Positions 43,342-63,554 of a stretch of 64,000 nucleotides of DNA are shown one piece after another (positions within the stretch are counted from its first letter, which is position 1; every line of letters starts with the position of its first letter). Below the pieces are notes generated by a model, which was given only the letters and a program-made list of their open reading frames with translations, made no database searches and was not told the DNA's origin. Origin of the DNA: Isurus oxyrinchus (taxonomy: Eukaryota); the NCBI GenBank assembly GCA_026770705.1, contig JANJGN010000012.1:38688001-38752000 (forward strand), written 5' to 3'. The position numbers and the translations under genes are program-made.

Positions 43342-44080
43342 ATGGCCCCAAAAGGCAAGAAGACTGGAGCCTCCCCCCACCCAGTTTAGTGACACATCCC
43401 TTGGGGACCTTTTGGATGCCATGGAGGCCTGCCATGATGTCCTGTACCCACCGCTCTGGCCGCAGGATGGGCAGCAACATCACCAATCTGGCTTGGGAGA
43501 CGGTGGCAGCAGTGGTCACTCTCTCCATCTGTATTCATGCAGGACAAGCTGGCACACAGCAAGAGGGAGAGATCGCAGACCAGTGGAGGAATGCCCGACA
43601 TCAAGGTTCTTACAGGCTTTGAAAATCAAATTATCCAGCTGGCCGGTGAGGATCTGGTGATGAAGTCGGCAGTGCTCTACCAAGTGAAGATCCAGCAGGG
43701 AAACATCCATCAGACAACCATGCTGTGAGTGATGTGTCCTCCATGCACTAATTATCTCCGCTTGCTTTCGTAGGCACATCTGGGAAACAGCGGAGGGAGT
43801 CCACGGCCCAGGGCCTCCAATCAAGCCCCAAGGACAGCGCAGAAGAAGAATCTGATGGCACCCTCCTTGAAATCCCATCACAGTGCTCACCTACACCCTG
43901 TAGCAGTGCAGAGTCACAAACCTCGGTGGGACCTAGTTCTAGAGTAGCCTCTGGAGATAATCTGGTGAGCACATCACACTGTCTGATACACAGCAGATGG
44001 AGGCAGGGACTTCCCAGGTTTCCGGCACTTGGAGGACTTCTGGAGTCTAGAAATTTGCTGAATCTGAGTCAGATAATGAG
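43342..44080 (+). pseudogene. Harbinger Myb/SANT-like accessory protein (frameshifted)
   Basis: MAPKGKK..DAMEACHDVLYP..RRMGSNITNLAWETVAAVV; second exon DKLAHSKRERSQTSGGMPDIKVLT. Confidence 0.75.
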
Positions 44081-44089
44081 CTGCCATGT

Positions 44090-44950
44090 GGGTGTCATCA
44101 GCCATGTCCTTTGCAGTAGCCCTTGTCCCCGAGGAGCAATCCCTGCAGTCTCTGTGTACTTTGAAGATGTCAGGGATCTGTGACCCACTGAGAATGTAGG
44201 AGTTGTGGACACTGCCTGGGAACCATGCGCAGAGCTGCAGGATTCGTTTGTGGTGGTCGCACACCAGCCAAACATTCAGCGAGTGGAAGCCCTTGGGGTT
44301 GACCTAGTTGACCGCTTGTTGCCATGGAGATCTAAGTGCCATGTGATCGATGGCACCCTGCATCTGTGGGAAACCTGAGATCTGGGCAAATCCTAGCATA
44401 CTTGCATCCTGACTTTCCTGATCCCAGGCGAAATGCATAAAGTTATGTGCCTTCACGAAGCTGGCATCCGTGACCTCATGGATTCATTTTTGGGTGGAGG
44501 CTTGTGAAATCCCACAGAGCTCACCCATGGATCCCTGAAAGGAGCCATTGACATAAAAATTGAGCACCACAGTCACTTTCACGGCCATGACAGTGGATGT
44601 CTTCCATGTCCCCTTGGCACCAAATCCTGCAACAGGTGGCAGTTATAACCGGCCAGTTCCCTGGACATGTGCAGTCTTTGGTGACACTGGTTCTTGGTCA
44701 TCTGCAGGAATAAAAGGCGGCGTCTATAGACCCTGGGCCTAGCTAGGCGCCGACCAGCAATGACTCGCTGTGGCTCTTCAGCGATATGTGCGGGAGGCCC
44801 AGCCACCCCTTCTTCCTGAGAGTTCTGCTCCTCCCCCTGCACAGCCAGGTCCCCCTGTCGCTCTCTTCCCCTTTGTCTCCCTCTCTGTACGCCAAGAGGC
44901 ATGCAGCTAGCTCACCAGACTCCATGCTCCTGATGTACTCCTCCTGTAGG
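44090..44950 (-). pseudogene. HARBI1-like DDE transposase (disrupted, C-terminus deleted)
   Basis: RVYRRR..RLHMSRE; LNFYVNGSFQ..CGISQAS; GFPQMQGAID; KGFHSLNV..VCDH..FPGSVHNSYIL. Confidence 0.88.
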
Positions 44951-47313
44951 ATAAAAGCGAGAGATGCGTGGGTTAGCATGAGTGCTCTAAGAACCGCTCT
45001 TTTTTAAGTCTGAATGCCCCTTATCACATCTCAGAAAGTGCTGGCCACCAATGGATGACCAGAGTTTAGTGCTCTGCATCACTGCGCAAGACTCCGCCCA
45101 ACTCCACCCGACTCTACCTGACTGATTGGCAGCAGCTCTGCCCATTGGACTGCATGCTGTGCTCTCAGCTCAGGTGCAGGCATTCACCTATCTCATGCTA
45201 CAAGGCTGCTCTGTTAGATTAAAACATGGGGGAGACTGTTCCAAACCTGAATGATGATATTGCAAGGGGCTGTGAGCACCTCCACCAGTGATGACTCCAT
45301 GGCCAGCTTTAGCAATGAGATTGTACAATGTGCGCAGGCATCCAACTGTTCCCCCCTAAAATGCTCATTATTTTGCAGTCTGCGCCCAGGGTGAAGAACT
45401 TTGGAGCATTTGGTGGCATTTTCAGGCCTCTGTGTTGCTTGAGTGGGCAGGTAAGCTACAGGCCCAACTCCAAGCATGACCATATGGCTGCATCTGAACT
45501 GTCTCAGCTGCGGAGGAATGGTCACTTTATACAAGGTTTCCTTTATACATGGCCACTTCCCTCCCCTCCCCCGGAGGTGCTTATGCACTACCGTCAACTG
45601 CTGGGTAGTCCTTGCCCCGACACCGCACTGTGAGCCAGCCGGGAAAAAGCGACTTGTCTGTGGCCTCACCTGAATGCATGGCACCTCAACCTTAAAGTCC
45701 AACAGGCGACCCTCATGAGCGCTGCATAGCGTTACTGTGCATTCCCCTCCGAGTTCCCCTCCGAGTTCCCCTCGAAGTGCAGCTCGCCAGGTATATACGC
45801 TGTTGTGAAACACGTGAGCATGCAATCATGCCAATGTGCTCGGGTGATCCAGCATGGGGGGATGATTCTGGCGAGCTGCACTCATAATGATATGCAGGTA
45901 TTACAATGAAGTTCCCGATGTCTGACAATGTGAAACACGGCCCGCCATTGACAGGCAGAGCAGATAATTGCAAACTGGTTTCATGATGTTGTGAAACCAA
46001 TTTTTGGCCATCCTGCCATATTTTCCCCACACGCCCGCCATGATGCTATGACACCCGACTCCAGCAGGCATAGAAAATTCCGCCTAAAGTGTTTAAGGGG
46101 TGACGAGTCTGTTGTTAAAAATTAAGAAATCATCAATGATTATGAGATGCTTTCTCTGTTCAAAGTAATGGAGTAGTACTGGGTTGCTTGGAGAATAATC
46201 TGGTCATCCTCTCTGGCAATACTCTTTTATTTGGATTCTTTCATCATCCTGCTGTTGTACTTGCTTAATCTCATATAGTCTCTTCTCAGTGGCCAGTAAG
46301 TGTTTGGTTATGAGTGAACGACATGCTTTCTCTTCCTCCATGAAATTCAAATCTTCTAGTTTGACGCCTTCCACTGGTATTCTTGATAGTGCATTTGCTG
46401 TCGCCTGGTACATTCCTTGAACGCACTCAATCGCTGTATTGTATCACATTAGTCTGAGTCTGAAGTGTTGAATTCTTGTTGATATTTTTTGGGCAATCTC
46501 TTTTAGGTTAAGAACAATAACCAAAGGCTTGTGGTCAGTTTCAATTTTAAAGCTTAATCCCATCACATAATCAGAGAACTTCTCATATGGCCTTGTGGCT
46601 GCCAGTGCTTCTTTCTCAATTATTTGCATGCCTTTTCTCAGTGTCTGAGTGATCCTGAGGCATAATAAACTAGTTTTCTTTTTCCATGTTTTTGAAACAA
46701 AACTACAATCAAGCCTCTAGATGATGCATCTGCTGCTACTATGATCGGCAGTTCTGGATCATAGTGTGCTAGGATTTCAGGTGAAATTAGAACATTTTTG
46801 ATCCTGTCAAAAGCACTTTGCTGCTTCACATTCCAGCACCACTGTTGAATTTTTCTCAACAGTTGTTTTAACAGCTCATTGATTTCTGCCGAGTTTGATA
46901 GGAACTTGCCTATTTGGTTGACCAGCGCAAGGAATCATTGCAACTCTGTGATGTTCCTATGCTGTGGGGACTCTCTAATCACCTAGGTTTTCTGAGGGTC
47001 AGCTGTTACTCCTGAAGCTTGCACGATGTGCCCTAGGAATTAAATCATTGACTTTGGAAATTCACATTTCTCGTTCACTGTCAAACCTGCTTCTTGTCAA
47101 ACTTTAAGGACTGTTCTCACTACGGTCATGTTCTTTTCCTGATGAACCATGTACGACCATGTCATCCATATGGCATATTACTCCCTTGATGCCTTCCAGG
47201 GTCTGAGACATTGTTCTTTGGAATATCGCTGGTGCAGAAGCAATTCCGAATGGTAACCTGTGAAAACAATAATGGCTGAATGGCATTACACAAGTCTGGA
47301 TTCTTTGTCCTGT

Positions 47314-47540: not shown

Positions 47541-47883
47541 AACTGCCAGTTATCTCAGAGGCAACAGCCAAAAGCTACTACTTACTTCTAATTTGGTGAA
47601 TAGGGCATATTTTGCTAATTGGCAAGACTTTCAGCCACTGATGCCATCAGATGGATCTCATGTTCCATTGGCTTGTTTAGTTGAGTCAAGTCCACACAGA
47701 TTCTAACTGAGCCATTAGGCTTTGGTACTGTGACCGTCCCAGAACACCCCTTTGTCGGAATGGTTACTGGAGAGATAAAAACAAAAAAACAAAAAAAAAA
47801 CTGCGGATGCTGGAAATCCAAAACAAAAACAGAATTACCTGGAAAAACTCAGCAGGTCTGGCAGCATCGGCGGAGAAGAAAAG

Positions 47884-47922
47884 AGTTGACGTTTCGAGTC
47901 CTCATGACCCTTCGACAGAACT
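47884..47922 (-). ncRNA. Minimal type-I hammerhead ribozyme motif (variant core CUGUCGA)
   Basis: AGUU-CUGUCGA-A-GGGUC-AUGAG-GACUC-GAAACGUC-AACU: stem I, stem II, palindromic ACGU stem III, GUC site. Confidence 0.8.
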
Positions 47923-48300
47923 TGATTTCGAGTCCAAGAAAGAGTTGAAATATAAGCTGGTTTAAGGTGTGTGTGTGGGGGGCGGAGAGATAGAGAGAGA
48001 GAGGTGGTTGTGTGGATAAACAAGCAGTGATAGAAGCAGTTCATCAAAAGATGTCAGCGACAATGGTACAATAGAACACATAGGTGTTAAAGTTAAAGTT
48101 GGTGATATTATCTAAACGAATGTGCTAATTAAGAATGGATGGTAGGGCACTCAAGTACAGCTCTAGTGGGGGTGGAGGGAGCATAAAAGATTTTAAAATA
48201 TTTAAAAATAATGGAAATAGGTGGGAAAAGAAAAATCTATATAATTTATTGGGGAAAAAAAAGGGGGAAACAGAAAGGGGGTGGGGATGGGGGAGGGAGC

Positions 48301-51059
48301 TCACGACCTAAAGTTGTTGAATTCAATATTCAGACCGGAAGGCTGTAAGGTGCCTAGTCGGAAGATGAGGTGTTGTTCCTCCAGTTTGCGTTGGGCTTCA
48401 CTGGAACAATGCAGCAAGCCAAGGACAGACATGTGGGCAAGAGAGCAGGGTGGAGTGTTAAAATGGCAAGCGACAGGGAGGTTTGGGTCATTCTTGCGGA
48501 CAGACCGCAGGTGTTCTGCAAAGCGGTTGCCCAGTTTACGTTTGGTCTCTCCAATGTAGAGGAGACCACATTGGGAGCAACGAATGCAGTAGACTAAGTT
48601 GCGGGAAATGCAAGTGAAATGCTGCTTCACTTGAAAGGAGTGTTTGGGCCCTTGGACGGTGAGGAGAGAGGAAGTGAAGGGGCAGGTGTTACATCTTTTG
48701 CGTGGGCATGGGGTGGTGCCATAGGAGGGGGTTGAGGAGTACGGGGTGATGGAGGAGTGGACCAGGGTGTCCCGGAGGGAGCGATCCCTATGGAATGCCG
48801 ATAAGGGGGGTGAAGGGAAGATGTGTTTGGTGGTGGCATCATGCTGGAGTTGGCGGAAATGGCGGAGCGTGATCCTTTGAATGCGGAGGCTGGTGGGGTG
48901 ATAAGTGAAGACAAGGGGGACCCTATCATGTTTCTGGGAGGGAGGAGAAGGCGTGAGGGCAGATGCGCGGGAGATGGGCCGGACACGGTTGAGGGCCCTG
49001 TCAACGACCGTGGGTGGAAAACCTCGGTTAAGGAAGAAGGAGGACATGTCAGAGGAACCGTTTTTGAAGGTAGCATCATCGGAACAGATGCGACGAAGGC
49101 GAAGGAACTGGGAGAATGGGATGGAGTCCTTACAGGAGGCGGGGTGTGAGGAGTTGTAGTCGAGGTAGCTGTGGGAGTCGTTGGGTTTGTAATGGATATT
49201 GGTGGACAGTCTATCACCAGAGATTGAGACAGAGAGGTCAAGGAAGGGAAGGGAAGTGTCAGAGATGGACCACGTAAAAATGATGGAGGGGTGGAGATTG
49301 GAAGCAAAATTAATAAATTTTTCCAAGTCCCGACGAGAGCATGAAGCGGCACCGAAGTAATCATCGATGTACCGGAGAAAAAGTTGTGGAAGGGGGCCGG
49401 AGTAGGACTGCAACAAGGAATGTTCCACATACCCCATAAAGAGACAGGCATAGCTGGGGCCCATGCGGGTACCCATAGCCACACCTTTTATTTGGAGGAA
49501 GTGAGAGGAGTTGAAGGAGAAATTGTTCAACGTGAGAACAAGTTCAGCCAGATGGAGGAGAGTAGTGGTGGATGGGGATTGTTCGGGCCTCTGTTCGAGG
49601 AAGAAGCTAAGGGCCCTCAGACCATCCTGGTGGGGGATGGAGGTGTAGAGGGATTGGACGTCCATGGTAAAGAGGAAGAGGTTGGGGCCAGGGAACTGGA
49701 AATTGTTGATGTGACGTAAGGTGTCAGAGGAATCACGGATGTAGGTGGGAAGGATCTGGACAAGGGGAGAGAGAAGGGAGTCAAGATAACGAGAAATGAG
49801 TTCTGTGGGGCAAGAGCAAGCTGAGACGATCGGTCTACCGGGGCAGTTCTGTTTGTGGATTTTGGGTAGGAGATAGAAGCGGGCCGTCCGAGGTTGGGCG
49901 ACTATCAGGTTGGAAGCTGTGGGAGGGAGATCCCCAGAGGAGATGAGGTCAGTGACAGTCCTGGAAACAATGGCTTGATGTTCAGTGGTGGGGTCATGGT
50001 CCAGGGAGAGGTAGGAGGAAGTGTCTGCGAGTTGACGCTCAGCCTCCGCGAGGTAGAGGTCAATGCGCCAGACAACAACAGCACCACCCTTGTCAGCGGG
50101 TTTGATGACAATGTCAGGGTTGGACCTGAGAGAATGGAGTGCAGTAAGTTCCGAGAGAGACAGGTTAGAATGGGTGAGAGGAGCAGAGAAATTGAGACGA
50201 CTAATGTCGCGCCGACAGTTCTCAATGAAAAGATCAAGAGAAGGTAAGAATCCAGAGGGAGGGGTCCAGGTGGAGGGAGAATATTGGAGATGGGTAACAG
50301 GATCCGTTGAACTGGGAGAGGACTCCTGCCCAAAGAAGTGAGTCCGGAGACGAAGACGGCGAAAGAAGAGTTCAGTATCATGCCGAGCCCGAAATTCATT
50401 GAGGTGAGGGCGTAAGGGTATGAAACTAAGTCCTTTGCTGAGCACTGAACGTTAAGCATCGGAGAGGGGAAGGTCAGGGGGTATAGTGAATACACGGCTG
50501 GGGTTGGGGTTGGAAGAAAGGGTGGGGACGGAGGGACAGGCAGGGGTGGAGGGTCCTAGATGGGTGTTGGTGTCGATGAGTTGTTGGAGCTTGTGTTCCT
50601 TAGCAGTTGAGAGAAAGAGAAAAAGTTTCTTGTTGAGGCGTCGGATGAGCTGAAGGATAAAATGAAACTGGGGGCACGCGCAGCTTTGAAAAAGGGTACG
50701 GCGGTGCTGCTGGAGGGAGAGGTCGAGTGTGTTCATATGGCGGCGCATGGCACTGAGTGTGGATTTCAGAATGTGACGGGAACAGCAGTCTGAGAAACGT
50801 TTTATGTCCCGGAGATACCGGTAATCCTGGGTGGGTTCGAAAGATGAGGGATGGAATTTCAGTTGAAATCCACGTGGGGTAAGTCGGAGACGGAGACAGT
50901 CACTGAGAAAGGAGATATGGCTGTGAAAACGGGTTTTAGTAAACACCTTGTCAAACACCAGGAGGGAAATGGAAAGCAAAGAAGGTGAACAAGGCAACAG
51001 AGAGATACGGAAATCTTGTCGCAGAGAGGAACAGAACTTCTTCAAGGAGGTAGGCATTT
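48301..51059 (-). pseudogene. PLE polyprotein (N-terminal domain, RT, Cys linker, GIY-YIG endonuclease) with one in-frame TAA at 50452-50454
   Basis: ORFs 50452-51081 and 48301-50445 are in the same frame (..LSDA*RSVLSKGL); motifs PADKGG, LPKIHK, GRPIVS, MDVQSLYTSIP, GVAMG, RYIDD, CPRKRCNTC, LVYCIRC..LYIGET..RFAEH. Confidence 0.93.
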
Positions 51060-51089
51060 CTTGAAGAGCAGTGGCAGTCAATTAAACAC

Positions 51090-52037
51090 AGAGATAAAAA
51101 CAAAAAAAACTGCGGATGCTGGAAATCCAAAACAAAAACAGAATTACCTGGAAAAACTCAGCAGGTCTGGCAGCATCGGCGGAGAAGAAAAGAGTTGACG
51201 TTTCGAGTCCTCATGACCCTTCGACAGAACTTGATTTCGAGTCCAAGAAAGAGTTGAAATATAAGCTGGTTTAAGGTGTGTGTGTGGGGGGCGGAGAGAT
51301 AGAGAGAGAGAGGTGGTTGTGTGGATAAACAAGCAGTGATAGAAGCAGATCATCAAAAGATGTCAGCGACAATGGTACAATAGAACACATAGGTGTTAAA
51401 GTTAAAGTTGGTGATATTATCTAAACGAATGTGCTAATTAAGAATGGATGGTAGGGCACTCAAGTACAGCTCTAGTGGGGGTGGAGGGAGCATAAAAGAT
51501 TTTAAAATATTTAAAAATAATGGAAATAGGTGGGAAAAGAAAAATCTATATAATTTATTGGGGAAAAAAAAAGGGGGAAACAGAAAGGGGGTGGGGATGG
51601 GGGAGGGAGCTCACGACCTAAAGTTGTTGAATTCAATATTCAGACCGGAAGGCTGTAAGGTGCCTAGTCGGAAGATGAGGTGTTGTTCCTCCAGTTTGCG
51701 TTGGGCTTCACTGGAACAATGCAGCAAGCCAAGGACAGACATGTGGGCAAGAGAGCAGGGTGGAGTGTTAAAATGGCAAGCGACAGGGAGGTTTGGGTCA
51801 TTCTTGCGGACAGACCGCAGGTGTTCTGCAAAGCGGTTGCCCAGTTTACGTTTGGTCTCTCCAATGTAGAGGAGACCACATTGGGAGCAACGAATGCAGT
51901 AGACTAAGTTGGGGGAAATGCAAGTGAAATGCTGCTTCACTTGAAAGGAGTGTTTGGGCCCTTGGACGGTGAGGAGAGAGGAAGTGAAGGGGCAGGTGTT
52001 ACATCTTTTGCGTGGGCATGGGGTGGTGCCATAGGAG
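51090..52037 (-). repeat. Upstream pLTR (5'-truncated tandem copy including the GIY-YIG coding end)
   Basis: Near-identical to 47771-48727; by eye 2 substitutions and 2 A-run length differences. Confidence 0.95.
51193..51231 (-). ncRNA. Minimal type-I hammerhead ribozyme motif (variant core)
   Basis: Identical to 47884-47922. Confidence 0.8.
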
Positions 52038-52689: not shown

Positions 52690-55300
52690 CACAGCCTTTG
52701 ATTAGACTGAATTAGTCCATCCTGGGCATCTCTGGCAGCTAACTGAGCAGCAATAGGTGGTTTTGCCACATCAGACTCCTTCTCCTCCCCCTGTTGTTCC
52801 TCCTCTTGCTCCTCCTCCTCTGAAGATGCAGAGCGCTCATTACTTTCCTCCTTCTGGAGGTCCAGTCCTCTCTGCAGTATAATGTTGCACAAAATGCTGG
52901 AGACGACAGCCACTCTCGAAACCCTGAATGGTCCAAACTATCATGCAACCCCAGGTCTGTCTGGGTACCTGAATCGCATCTTCAGCATTCTCATTGCTTG
53001 CTCAATTACAACTCTGATGTTCATGTGGATCCTGCTTTACCTTCCCTGGGTGTCAGTGCTAGGGCTCTTTACAGGGATCATTGGCCACAGCTTTACAGGG
53101 AGCTCTTGTTTTCACGAAGCCATCCATTGACTCTGCTTTGAGGTGTTAATATTGGTGGCAAACATGAATGACATAGGATTGGCGCATCATGACAGCTCCC
53201 TGGAAAATCTTGCACTGATATTCACGATGGTCTCTAGGTTGCAGACCAACTAAAATATGTGGAACAAGTGGAATCTGTTTTCTGCTGGCTGATCTAGGGG
53301 CTGCTTTGATTGCCATAGGTGTGTAATGTATGACTTCCTAAAGCTGTGGGAGTTAGCTCGAGTTGCAAATCCACACACCCTCTCGTTTCATTGCAAACCT
53401 CATTCATTGCAAACTGGATATAAATCTACCACAAGTATGCATGGAAGCAGATTGTGAGATTCTACAAATATCACCTGCAGATTCCTGGAATGAGCTAGAG
53501 GCAAAGAAACCAAGAGCTATGGTGCCACTGACAATGCTCACCAGGGCTACTTGGAAGGAGGTCTTGTTCCATCAAGCTGCAAATGTCAGTGATCACCTAA
53601 CAGGAAGAGTCGATTATTAAGGATGAGATTTCAGAATACTTGGAAGTGCATGGTAAAATAGAGCAAAGTCAGTATGGTTTCATCAAGGGGAGGTCACGCC
53701 TGACAAATCTGTTAGAATTCTTTGAGGAGGTAACGAGTAGGTTAGACAAAGGAGAGCCAATGGATGTTATCTACTTGGACTTCCAGAAGGCCTTTGACAA
53801 GGTGCCGCACAGGAGGCTGCTCAGTAAGATAAGAGTCCTTGGTGTTAGAGGCAAGGTACTAGCATGGATAGAAGATTGGCTGTCTGGCAGGAGGCAGAGA
53901 GTGGGGATAAGGGGGTCCTTCTCAGGATGGCGGCCGGTGACTAGTGGAGTTCCGCAGGGGTCAGTTTTGGAATCACAACTTTTCACTTTATATATACATT
54001 AATGATCTAGATGAAGGAACTGAGGGCATCCTGGCTAAGTTTGCAGATGATACAAAGATAGGTGGAGGGACAGATAGTATTGAGGAGGCAGGGAGGCTGC
54101 AGAAGGATTTGGACAGGCTAGGAGAATGGGCAAAGAAGTGGCAGATGGAATACAACGTGGGGAAGTGTGAGGTCATGCACTTTGGTAGGAAGAATAGAGG
54201 CAGAGACTATTTTCTAAATGGGGAGAGAATTCAGAAATCTGGAGTGCAAAGGGACTTGGGAGTCCTAGTCCAGGATTCTCTTAAGGTTGAGTTGGTAGTT
54301 ATGAAGGCAAATGCAATGTTGGCATTTATTTTGAGAGGACTAGAATATAAAAGCAGGGATGTGCTGCTGAGGTTTTATAAAGCTCTGGTCAGACCACATT
54401 TAGAATATTGTGAGCAATTTTGGGCCCCGTATCTCAGGAAGGATGTTCTGGCCCTGGAGAGCGTCCAGAGGAGGTTCACGAGAATGATCCCAGGAATGAA
54501 AGGCTTAACATATGAGGAACGTTTGAGGACTCTGGGTCTCTACTCGATGGAGTTTAGAAGGATGAGGGGGGATCTGATTGAAACTTACAGAATACTGAAA
54601 GGCCTGGATAGAGTGGACGTGGGGAAGATGTTTCCATTAGTAGGAGAGACTAGGACCCGAGGGCACAGCCTCAGAGTAAAGGGAAGACCTTTTAGAACAG
54701 AGATGAGGAGAAACTTCTTTAGCCAGAGAGTGGTGAATCTATGGAATTCATTGCCACAGAAGGCTGTGGAGGCCAGGTCATTGAGTGTATTTAAGACTGA
54801 GATAGATAGGTTCTTGATTGGTAAGGGGATCAAAGGTTACAGGGAGAAGACGGGAGAATGGGGTTGAGAAACTTATCAGCCATGATTGAATAGCAGAGCA
54901 GACTCGATGGGCCGAATGGCTCCTTTGTCTTATGGTCTTATGATCTTATGGAAAGCCTAAGCCTCCTGAGACCCCAGTGTAGTCATGACAGCTTATCCTC
55001 TGCCTGTACACTGTGTACTAGAGCTGTTGTCTCCTCTGAAGTTGATCTGTGTACCTATCCCCTCTGTCCTGTGGACCAACAAGTGGCTGCGGAGGATACT
55101 GCTCCATCTGTTGGTACTGCTGTTGCTCTTCTTCTTCCTTATCTGCCATCCAAAGTGGCTCCCATGCCGCTGTGAAGGCTAACAGATGGGAAGTGCAGAT
55201 CAAAAGCAAGAAACCCCAAGTCATTAAACATGATCGGCAAATTATTGCAAACCACATCCAAAGCAGTGAAAACACACTTTCAGAACTAGTCCTGTGAGAA
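52690..55300 (-). pseudogene. Second decayed Harbinger transposase, split by CR1
   Basis: N-part VYRQRIS..RRLRLS (~54950-55180); C-part RVVIEQAMRMLKMRFRY..SSILCNIILQRG + acidic tail ..AARDAQDGLIQ (52690-53100). Confidence 0.75.
53610..54950 (+). mobile_element. 5'-truncated CR1 (HER1-like) LINE, well preserved RT with one frameshift near 53990
   Basis: SQYGFIKGRS..LDFQKAFDKVPH..GVPQGSV / INDL..KFADDTK..LVRPHLEYC..RNFFSQRVVNLWNSLP; tail tcttatggtcttatgatcttatg. Confidence 0.95.
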
Positions 55301-61085: not shown

Positions 61086-61587
61086 AGTATCTGACTAATG
61101 TTCAGTCTAAGTGGTATGGGCACATAGCTGCACAAAAGCCTGGACAATACCAGGCAGGACTGGTTCCGAGATAAATACCATGTGTGTGAATTTTTAGACT
61201 GCACATTGATAAACCTGCCTGTACATAACAACTGAATATTAAAGGAACATCAATGGTGAGCCCTAAGATATTGCTGGTTTCTTCACTACAGTCCTTACTT
61301 AGTATTCTCAACAGAAAATAACTGTATCAAACTCTTGTCCGGCATAGTACTCAATGTAGCAAACCATTTTCCATCGAATTCAATTTGTGATCTGTATTTA
61401 ACAGTTAAATATAGACCTGACTCAAGCAAAACTGCCCCGGATTTGTTGTTTTGCCATTTCTCAGCACATTGCATTGTGTCAAATCAGTGCATGTCAGTCA
61501 TCTTTCAGGAACCAACAGCTTCTCGTCAAACATTATGTTGTCGAAAATAAAGTAGGCTCATTTAGACTCACACATTAAAAGTGTACA

Positions 61588-61663
61588 ATACTGCGGATAC
61601 TGAAAATTTGAAATAAAAATAGAAGATATAGGAAATGTTCAGCAGGTCAGACAGTATCTATGG
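61588..61663 (-). mobile_element. Old PLE-pLTR tail remnant (resumes at 62516-62537)
   Basis: tactgcggatactgaaaatttgaaataaaaa..cagcaggtcagacagtatctatgg | agagaaaaacagagctaacg matches the reverse complement of the tail at 2965-3060. Confidence 0.7.
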
Positions 61664-61728
61664 CAAAATAAAAACAGAATTACCTGGAAAAACTCAGCAG
61701 GTCTGGCAGCATCGGCGGAGAAGAAAAG

Positions 61729-61767
61729 AGTTGACGTTTCGAGTCCTCATGACCCTTCGACAGAACT
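61729..61767 (-). ncRNA. Hammerhead motif, left arm
   Basis: Identical to 47884-47922. Confidence 0.75.
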
Positions 61768-61920
61768 TGATTTCGAGTCCAAGAAAGAGTTGAAATATAA
61801 GCTGGTTTAAGGTGTGTGTGTGGGGGGGGAAGGAGAGAGTCTCTCTCTCTCTCTCCTTCCCCCCCCACACACACACCTTAAACCAGCTTATATTTCAACT
61901 CTTTCTTGGACTCGAAATCA

Positions 61921-61959
61921 AGTTCTGTCGAAGGGTCATGAGGACTCGAAACGTCAACT
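61921..61959 (+). ncRNA. Hammerhead motif, right arm
   Basis: agttctgtcgaagggtcatgaggactcgaaacgtcaact. Confidence 0.75.
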
Positions 61960-62072
61960 CTTTTCTTCTCCGCCGATGCTGCCAGACCTGCTGAGTTTTT
62001 CCAGGTAATTCTGTTTTTATTTTGGATTTCCAGCATCCGCAGTTTTCTCTGTTTTCATATCAGTATCTATGG

Positions 62073-62507
62073 CAATGCTTCTCAAATGTTTTCCTAATGC
62101 GAACCCATTTTAATGCCTTAGACTTTGACGTGGGAGGGTTAGAGAGTTTTTGAATGTGGAGGGAGGGGGGAGAAGAGTTGTTGATGGTGGGGGATGGGGA
62201 TGGGGGTGGATGGTGGTGAGGTGAGTGGTTGACCAGGAAGGGGAGTTTAAAACCACTGGGTTTGCCTGACAAAAAAACAAAGAGCTACCTTTTTATAGGC
62301 GGTGGCTGTAGCAGCATTTCAGGCCTCAGGGAACAGGTGATTAAGCCATGCACCTGATAGAAAAGAATATGAACATTTAAAGGGACCTCGCAGCTGTCTA
62401 AACACAATCTGAGCTCCATGGCTGCTCATGCTGCCTCGGGGCTCATGAACACAAGTTCTCATCCCATGAGTCCAATGGGGGTCACGACCCAGAATTTAGA
62501 ACCCCTG
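62073..62507. mobile_element. hAT (Charlie-like) MITE, 8-bp TSD ATCTATGG
   Basis: ATCTATGG-caatgcttctcaaa...tttagaacccctg-ATCTATGG; subterminal gggtcacgaccc. Confidence 0.8.
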
Positions 62508-63554
62508 ATCTATGGAGAGAAAAACAGAGCTAACGACTGTCTCATTTTGACTTTTTGTCAGAACTGCCATCATTTAGATCCACGTTCAGCATGAACAATT
62601 AATTTGAAGTATCACAAAAACTGCATCACGAACCAATCATCTATTTTTCTCACCAAATTTTCCCATTCCCATCCCTAAAGTACTGAGTAATATTTTCAGC
62701 TACCTTTTAGCTCCTTGCTCAAAATATCGATCTCCATTTTTGAGCCAAAACAGCAAGGACAATACAACCAAGCCTGATTCTCCTTTTACTCAATGTTTTC
62801 CTGCATGTATCCTCTGAATGAGATCACTGGACAGCAATCAGGAATGGGAACTATGGCTGCTTCCTTTGCTCCCAGCCTAGAAGCACTGAGGCCAAATATA
62901 ATACCTGTTCCAGCATCCTGGAGGAGAGCTGCTAACACAGCACAGATTGAGAGTGGAATCTGGGACCTTTGGCACAGTACGAAGAGGTAATGCATTTATG
63001 TAGGACATTGGAGGGTTTAGTTAATCAAATAAACACACTGTGCATATCGTACACAAGCATAGCATGTCCTGATAAACTGGTTATTAATTTATAATATTTG
63101 ATTTACAGCAGTCTGTATGCAGTGCTAAATGCTTTTATACACTAGAGAATGATTTGTTAGGAATATCAAAGCTATAGGGAAGAGTTCTGTTCTTTGGGCT
63201 GCATCGCAGTGCCTACAGGCACTGTTTCACCCATTCTGATTAAATATTCACTATGCAGATTTAAATTTACTATTTCCATATTGAAGCTCTGCGTGTTCAC
63301 CAGGGAAATGGCTATGCATGGAGCTGCAGGATGAAGCCTGCAACTATCTTTTTCTAGGAGTCCAAAACCAGACATGGAAATTATAATGAATTTCCTTGTT
63401 TCAAGGAAGTCAGAAGTATCTGTTACTTCCTACTCTTCTTCCTCTCCTGAAAATGGTGCCTCATACTGAGGTACAAGAAAGTTACAGATAAAAAGGCCAC
63501 TTAGTCTAATTCTCTCATGATAAAATTCAGTTCTATTTTGAACATCAACGAGCA

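Follow-up and report, generated by a model that had tools for sequence, protein, structure and literature searches.

A likely young palindrome of Penelope-like element 3' ends in the Isurus oxyrinchus genome, one of thousands of mirror-image stubs

Background

A perfect palindrome lies within a target site duplication (TSD) at positions 61652-62075 of a 64,000-nt stretch of the Isurus oxyrinchus genome (assembly GCA_026770705.1, contig JANJGN010000012.1, positions 38,688,001 to 38,752,000); this whole stretch is referred to below as the window. The locus raises the question of how two mirror-image copies of one sequence came to share a single insertion site, and of whether they form an element that spreads on its own. 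The layout itself is already published: inverted pLTRs together with a tail are a typical structure of Penelope-like elements (PLEs) according to the available text of PMC3846280, PMC8557442, and PMC8969392. In the available parts of PMC8557442 and PMC11167929, the PLE tail is given as 30-40 bp, and the origin of inverted copies and of one-sided tails is called unresolved.

Structure and setting of the palindrome

The left arm (61664-61839) and the right arm (61849-62024) are 176 nt each and 100% complementary, and they are separated by a spacer of 9 nt (61840-61848). A tail of 36 nt (62025-62060) is present on the right-arm side only, and copies of a 15-bp TSD enclose the whole at 61652-61666 and 62061-62075; the duplicated sequence occurs at these two places only within the window and cannot be extended. 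The first 3 nt of the left arm double as the end of the TSD, so that the insert proper comprises 61667-62060. These values were re-measured and agreed with the preliminary description, as did the lack of any ORF in the palindrome. The spacer had also been placed inside a (GA)/(TC) tract; its location in a microsatellite holds, but there is no separate tract, as comparison by eye with subfamily copies showed the spacer to be parental (CT)n sequence belonging to the right arm, reaching 9-10 nt beyond the left arm. The same comparison gave 1 nt of microhomology at the inversion junction (approximately 61839/61840). Folded as RNA, the palindrome reached -357.6 kcal/mol (z = -47), and 0 of 100 shuffles folded equally well. 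The features at and around the insertion are as follows.

61652..61666, no strand: left TSD copy, the last 3 nt being the start of the left arm and a putative priming microhomology; single copy at the empty site
61664..61839, sense on minus: tail-less arm, PLE 3' end (pLTR), with 5' truncation inside an (AG)n tract
61840..61848, plus strand: 9-nt spacer, extra parental (CT)n of the right arm; junction unique in the genome
61849..62024, sense on plus: tailed arm, PLE 3' end (pLTR)
62025..62060, plus strand: one-sided PLE tail, 36 nt
62061..62075, no strand: right TSD copy, 15 bp
61587..61663, minus strand: old pLTR remnant in the left flank, about 74% identical, resuming at 62508
62076..62507, no strand: older DNA-transposon-like insert with an 8-bp TSD at 61656-61663 and 62508-62515

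The region 61587-62535 is a triple nesting, in which the old pLTR remnant is split by the insert at 62076-62507, which we take to be hAT/MITE-like, and the palindrome sits at the left end of that insert. A Pfam search covered 67 of the 78 open frames with 95 aa or more, omitting the 11 that belong to the PLE described below, and returned transposon domains only, at a frame length that misses short exons. A DDE_Tnp_4 nuclease fragment, an RT-RNase H fragment, and a LINE-type RT were seen at 43977-44303, 46641-46934, and 53601-54864.

The parent element

The window also holds a larger relative of the palindrome.

47785..52037, minus strand: autonomous-type PLE relative, a partial tandem with an RT and GIY-YIG ORF; not the direct source of the palindrome

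This copy is near-intact, and its 944-bp repeat is 99.5% identical. The ORF at 48301-51081 (minus strand) contains RT and GIY-YIG domains (RVT_1, E = 1e-6; GIY-YIG, E = 3e-4; each just under the curated Pfam cut-off) and one in-frame stop at 50452-50454, and a tblastn comparison of it with phage records gave no match. Between the RT and the endonuclease lies a CX4CxxC linker. The available text of PMC8557442 uses a CX2-5CxxC linker to separate Neptune/Nematis from Penelope/Poseidon, and by this criterion the parent PLE is placed with Neptune/Nematis. Identity between the palindrome's arms and the ends of the 47.8/51.1-kb element is 95-97%, with 97% for the tail-less arm against the 47.8-kb and 51.1-kb copies, and the palindrome is read as the 3' end of a Neptune/Nematis-type PLE, the class being taken from the linker motif.

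Two variants, aaaaT and ggggAAgg, had been reported as shared by the arms; both were found in both arms and are absent from the 47.8-kb and 51.1-kb copies. The earlier proposals of a PLE origin, a single insertion event, and a template for both arms other than the 47.8-kb element are supported. The variants are not private to the locus but mark a source lineage. The microsatellite variant has 10 genome matches, of which two fall at this locus, two at one other palindrome, and six elsewhere, and the tail variant and T variant combined have 3, including this locus, all of them palindromic. Both haplotype siblings carry T on both arms and have their own centres and their own TSDs, so the variants mark a source lineage behind several independent palindromes. 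The search for tail variant plus T variant found no full-length source with this haplotype in the genome.

Empty site and age

In both of the 2 runs compared for organism B, the contigs placed 61651 next to 62061 with nothing between. Sample S1 of organism A, which is same-species-like, has both flanks identical to the window, and in 2 of its 4 runs the letters of the left flank stood directly before a single TSD. The empty-site check proposed earlier was thus positive in both organisms, and the insertion is therefore likely to be young and polymorphic. The filled junction was bridged, and the centre covered, by no contig of organisms A or B, in which minor alleles are dropped and the repeat is skipped, and the filled allele is carried by the assembly alone. 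An assembly or long-read fold-back artefact would agree with the flank-identical S1 contigs, in which the empty allele is seen but the filled junction is not; against it stand the loss of minor alleles from contigs and the chance that S1 is another individual, and above all the exact 15-bp TSD between non-palindromic flanks, the one-sided tail found in all mapped sister palindromes (see below), and a haplotype common to two other TSD-flanked insertions, which make an artefact highly improbable. The palindrome is a real, single-copy, and likely young insertion, and it could serve as a presence/absence marker. We put the probability that it is a one-off insertion of two head-to-head PLE 3' ends within a 15-bp TSD at approximately 0.9.

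Sister palindromes

The 4.98-Gb genome contains 32,794 exact matches to a 74-nt stretch of the pLTR. Sister palindromes number at least 3,126, with 277 loci centred in the same microsatellite stretch and 2,849 loci centred immediately 5' of the hammerhead motif; the latter position is a junction hot spot, beside which the microsatellite is only a minor zone, and the palindrome is an ordinary single-copy example of mirror-image stubs present at thousands of sites. Among 100 listed matches of the 74-mer, 14 head-to-head pairs lie less than 5 kb apart, with a spacing that differed in all of them by eye. All 40 palindromes mapped carry the tail on a single arm, and in each of them the second, tail-less arm ends at the same inner site. 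TSDs of 10-16 bp were found in 29 of 31 scored loci (34 were examined, 3 being without an anchor pair). Different microsatellite alleles occur on the two arms at L066, L069/L071, and L073. Perfect centres with zero loop occur at L047 and at 13 of the first 50 listed hot-spot loci, and one haplotype sibling, L078, has about 67 nt of filler between its arms (L078:1640-1706, minus-strand reading). Separately, the PLE palindromes at L049, L058, and L075 are nested in or adjoin other family members, which fits insertion of the family into its own sequence.

The hot spot coincides with a pair of motifs in the tailed arm.

61889..61924, plus strand: TATA-like motif at 61889 and Inr-like motif at 61918-61924, 31 nt apart; the junction hot spot lies here

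Both labels are our assumption from motif consensus, and the pair likely represents the pLTR promoter and RNA 5' end. Several hot-spot junctions contain extra C or G bases, as run-off of cDNAs at a capped RNA 5' end would predict. Run-off at a common RNA 5' end is the likelier cause of the recurring centres, and a common centre alone is for this reason no proof of self-propagation.

Search for a self-propagating family

The preliminary description had raised the possibility of a self-propagating, non-autonomous palindromic ribozyme element, and had held that the idea would fall if every copy had its own inversion point. Patterns of 37 nt and 21 nt across the centre each gave 1 genome match, namely the locus itself, so that the genome holds no copy with the same centre and another TSD, and these whole-genome centre searches detected no offspring of the palindrome. 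The siblings differ from it in both centre and TSD. Within the first 50 listed microsatellite-centred palindromes, 48 had no twin in that list when compared by eye. At the hot spot, groups of 8, 7, and 5 among the first 50 loci listed do have identical centres, which would speak for such an element, but such groups are to be expected there when cDNAs end by run-off at one RNA 5' end, and the ribozyme would have an altered core and be buried in the hairpin. The idea is refuted in this assembly and keeps next to no probability.

A further point in its favour comes from two other palindromes, L069 (G000:C1:160763174) and L071 (G000:C1:165437914), located 4.7 Mb apart on one contig. They share a centre, with 5 differences in 360 nt and exactly 2 genome matches, at sites with different flanks and TSDs. 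Their tails are on opposite arms; in each the two arms are unlike, and a C>T change confined to one arm is common to both palindromes. Ectopic gene conversion most simply accounts for the discordant tails; movement of a finished palindrome as a unit is possible.

Formation of the inverted copies

The inversion had been attributed to the reverse transcriptase folding back at the microsatellite. If a single tailed cDNA had folded back, the tail-less arm should never extend further inward than the tailed one. Among 16 palindromes not chosen by their centre, a sample in which the 74-mer had to be intact and very short palindromes are under-sampled, the tail-less arm reached more than 10 nt further in 9, ended within 10 nt in 5, and was shorter in 2. 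Each arm of those 9 contains sequence absent from the other, and fold-back of one cDNA is impossible there. Microsatellite-centred palindromes (n = 16) gave both signs, the tailed arm being longer in 7, the tail-less arm in 6, and neither in 3, with imprecise ends: at this locus, BLAST against a diverged reference placed the arm ends 21 nt apart in the microsatellite, versus 9-10 nt by eye against the locus's own subfamily. This small palindrome sample favours two-sided priming.

The available text of PMC11167929 reports that the Poseidon PAc protein cuts and extends both strands in vitro, and that reverse transcription starts at two sites separated by the tail. Taken together with the arm offsets, with the sisters whose arms differ in microsatellite allele, with the zero-loop centres, and with the filler in L078, these results lead us to infer priming from both nicks; PAc belongs to another clade than the palindrome's PLE, and the derivation of inverted insertions from two-sided priming is ours. 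No statement of two-sided priming for PLEs was found in the open-access literature searched, which also contained no relevant paper on an inverted tail in shark Neptune or on hairpin palindromes in Adineta. For the present copy, it is probable that both cut target strands primed reverse transcription and that the two truncated cDNAs were joined. The GIY-YIG endonuclease would nick both target strands 15 nt apart; one 3'-OH would prime at the outer start site and give the tailed arm, while the other would prime at the inner site, 36 nt further in and helped by 3 nt of microhomology, and give the tail-less arm. Both primings would use RNA of one source lineage, both cDNAs would stop inside the (AG)n tract, 9-10 nt apart, and end-joining with 1 nt of microhomology followed by fill-in would produce the palindrome and its TSD.

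A one-off insertion could also have formed from a single tailed cDNA that stalled after the (AG)n tract, looped, copied itself as far as the inner site, and was joined through the 3 nt of microhomology. The geometry of this copy fits fold-back with a 9-nt loop, as the tailed arm is longer by 9-10 nt, enough for the loop, and the arms are identical, including the rare haplotype. Self-priming has been proposed for PLE inverted junctions in the available text of PMC3846280, though on an antisense template, and near-equal ends are in excess among the sisters: three of the 16 palindromes (L042, L045, and L055) have them away from the hot spot, and the excess over independent truncation may reflect a second route or coordinated stalling. 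Pairing at the junction, however, is limited to 1 nt, and the parent tract, with one strand made up of purines only, cannot prime itself by Watson-Crick pairing. Fold-back does not apply to the 9 sisters above or agree with the two offset signs of the microsatellite class, the microsatellite is the minor junction zone, and fold-back alone leaves the constant inner end of the second arm unexplained. The earlier proposal is thus weakened, failing for those sisters and workable but unlikely for this copy. It is far less probable still that two slightly different templates gave rise to the arms and that gene conversion or hairpin repair later made them identical; the common centre of L069 and L071 indicates that palindrome cores may copy between loci, but the insertion is likely young, with its empty allele still seen, and both siblings carry the rare T on both arms, for which a common source is the simple explanation. 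Priming from both nicks therefore remains the preferred account.

Arms of a palindrome differ at 0-4 recurrent non-CpG sites. The T variant was tried as a test of one versus two templates at 30 loci fetched of 639 matches, of which 11 had an inverted partner (T on both arms in 1, on one arm in 9, and uncovered in 1), and was rejected because later mutation or target-derived bases explain the pattern.

The hammerhead motif and RNA

A hammerhead had been described on each strand. The motifs were read by eye.

61921..61959, plus strand: minimal type I hammerhead-like motif, with features as in the available text of PMC4209133
61729..61767, minus strand: mirror hammerhead-like motif at the mirror coordinates, without an Rfam match

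The plus-strand motif has a 4-bp stem I, the core CUGUCGA, a bulged A, a 5-bp stem II, GAAA, and a palindromic minimal helix III, with a putative cut after 61955. The hammerhead core consensus is CUGANGA...GAAA...NUH, and the core at 61925-61931 departs from the conserved CUGANGA in having U at position 6. This U is family-wide: of 119 motif counts, in which overlapping loci recur, CTGTCGA accounts for 103, and the remaining 16 have the U as well. An Rfam scan of the whole window at gathering scores gave 0 matches, and the ribozyme stretch folded alone showed no hammerhead fold and was not better than shuffles (z = 0.84). A transcript would contain a single sense motif, all of it paired within the predicted hairpin. 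The altered core, the lack of an Rfam match and of a fold alone, the need for a second same-sense copy, and the full pairing indicate that the motif is probably inactive in the palindrome; the earlier claim holds for a minimal type I-like motif on both strands but not for an intact, Rfam-recognised hammerhead. Retention of U at this position in tens of thousands of copies suggests that self-cleavage is dispensable or altered, and in the available text of PMC11167929 ribozyme mutants still insert in vitro, the ribozyme being dispensable there.

A read-through transcript would be expected to form a 176-bp hairpin hiding the ribozyme motif. The double-stranded RNA and endo-siRNA suggested earlier would, if real, be a property of the whole palindrome population. 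Runs of RNA type contained 0.05-0.16 of the sampled words, a small share that does not amount to evidence of transcription, and nothing on siRNA from PLE hairpins was found by title in the literature searched. The palindrome is most likely without function.

Comparison with known systems

As far as the available literature describes them, EN+ PLE insertions (Penelope/Poseidon, Neptune, Nematis, Naiad) have the same head-to-head inverted and 5'-truncated copy, variable TSD, one-end tail of 30-40 bp, pLTR hammerhead, and parent with RT and C-terminal GIY-YIG. The present locus likewise has the 3' end of an RT/GIY-YIG element, head-to-head truncation, a tail at one end, and a TSD with an empty site; it differs in that its halves are so short that only the pLTR remains, are near-perfect, and have no ORF. 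The stub number here is far above the low copy numbers described for Adineta in the text available.

The available text of PMC4209133 describes paired minimal hammerheads in metazoan PLEs, lying 100-700 bp from each other on opposite strands; these share type I topology, a short helix I, a bulged base between positions 9 and 10.1, the G10.1-C11.1 pair, and a palindromic minimal helix III with the present motif, in contrast to which the palindrome's family has U at core position 6. Non-LTR retrozymes, in the available text of 10.64898/2026.07.22.740005, are equally non-coding and PLE-derived with a type I hammerhead motif, but are arranged as head-to-tail tandems with two same-sense ribozymes and many copies, whereas the palindrome is inverted and single-copy.

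Twin priming of L1 shares with the present case the extension of both target ends by reverse transcriptase, ligation, and inversion in one TSD, as far as the sources available describe it; L1 inversions join non-overlapping parts of one RNA, whereas both arms here copy the same 3' segment. Extension of the two L1 ends from different RNAs is reported in the available text of 10.1101/2024.12.14.628481.

Conclusions

The locus itself is minor, one stub among thousands, and its value is that of a data point on how PLE inverted copies form. A wider reading, which we regard as doubtful, is that the more than 3,000 PLE hairpin loci record, in vivo, priming from both nicks at the two RT start sites and run-off at capped RNA 5' ends, that some finished palindromes, such as L069/L071, were re-mobilised as a unit, and that a palindromic non-autonomous class is nascent which could feed double-stranded RNA against its parent family. 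Each of the genome's thousands of young palindromes preserves a pair of cDNA ends, and counts of these allow fold-back to be weighed against two-sided priming.
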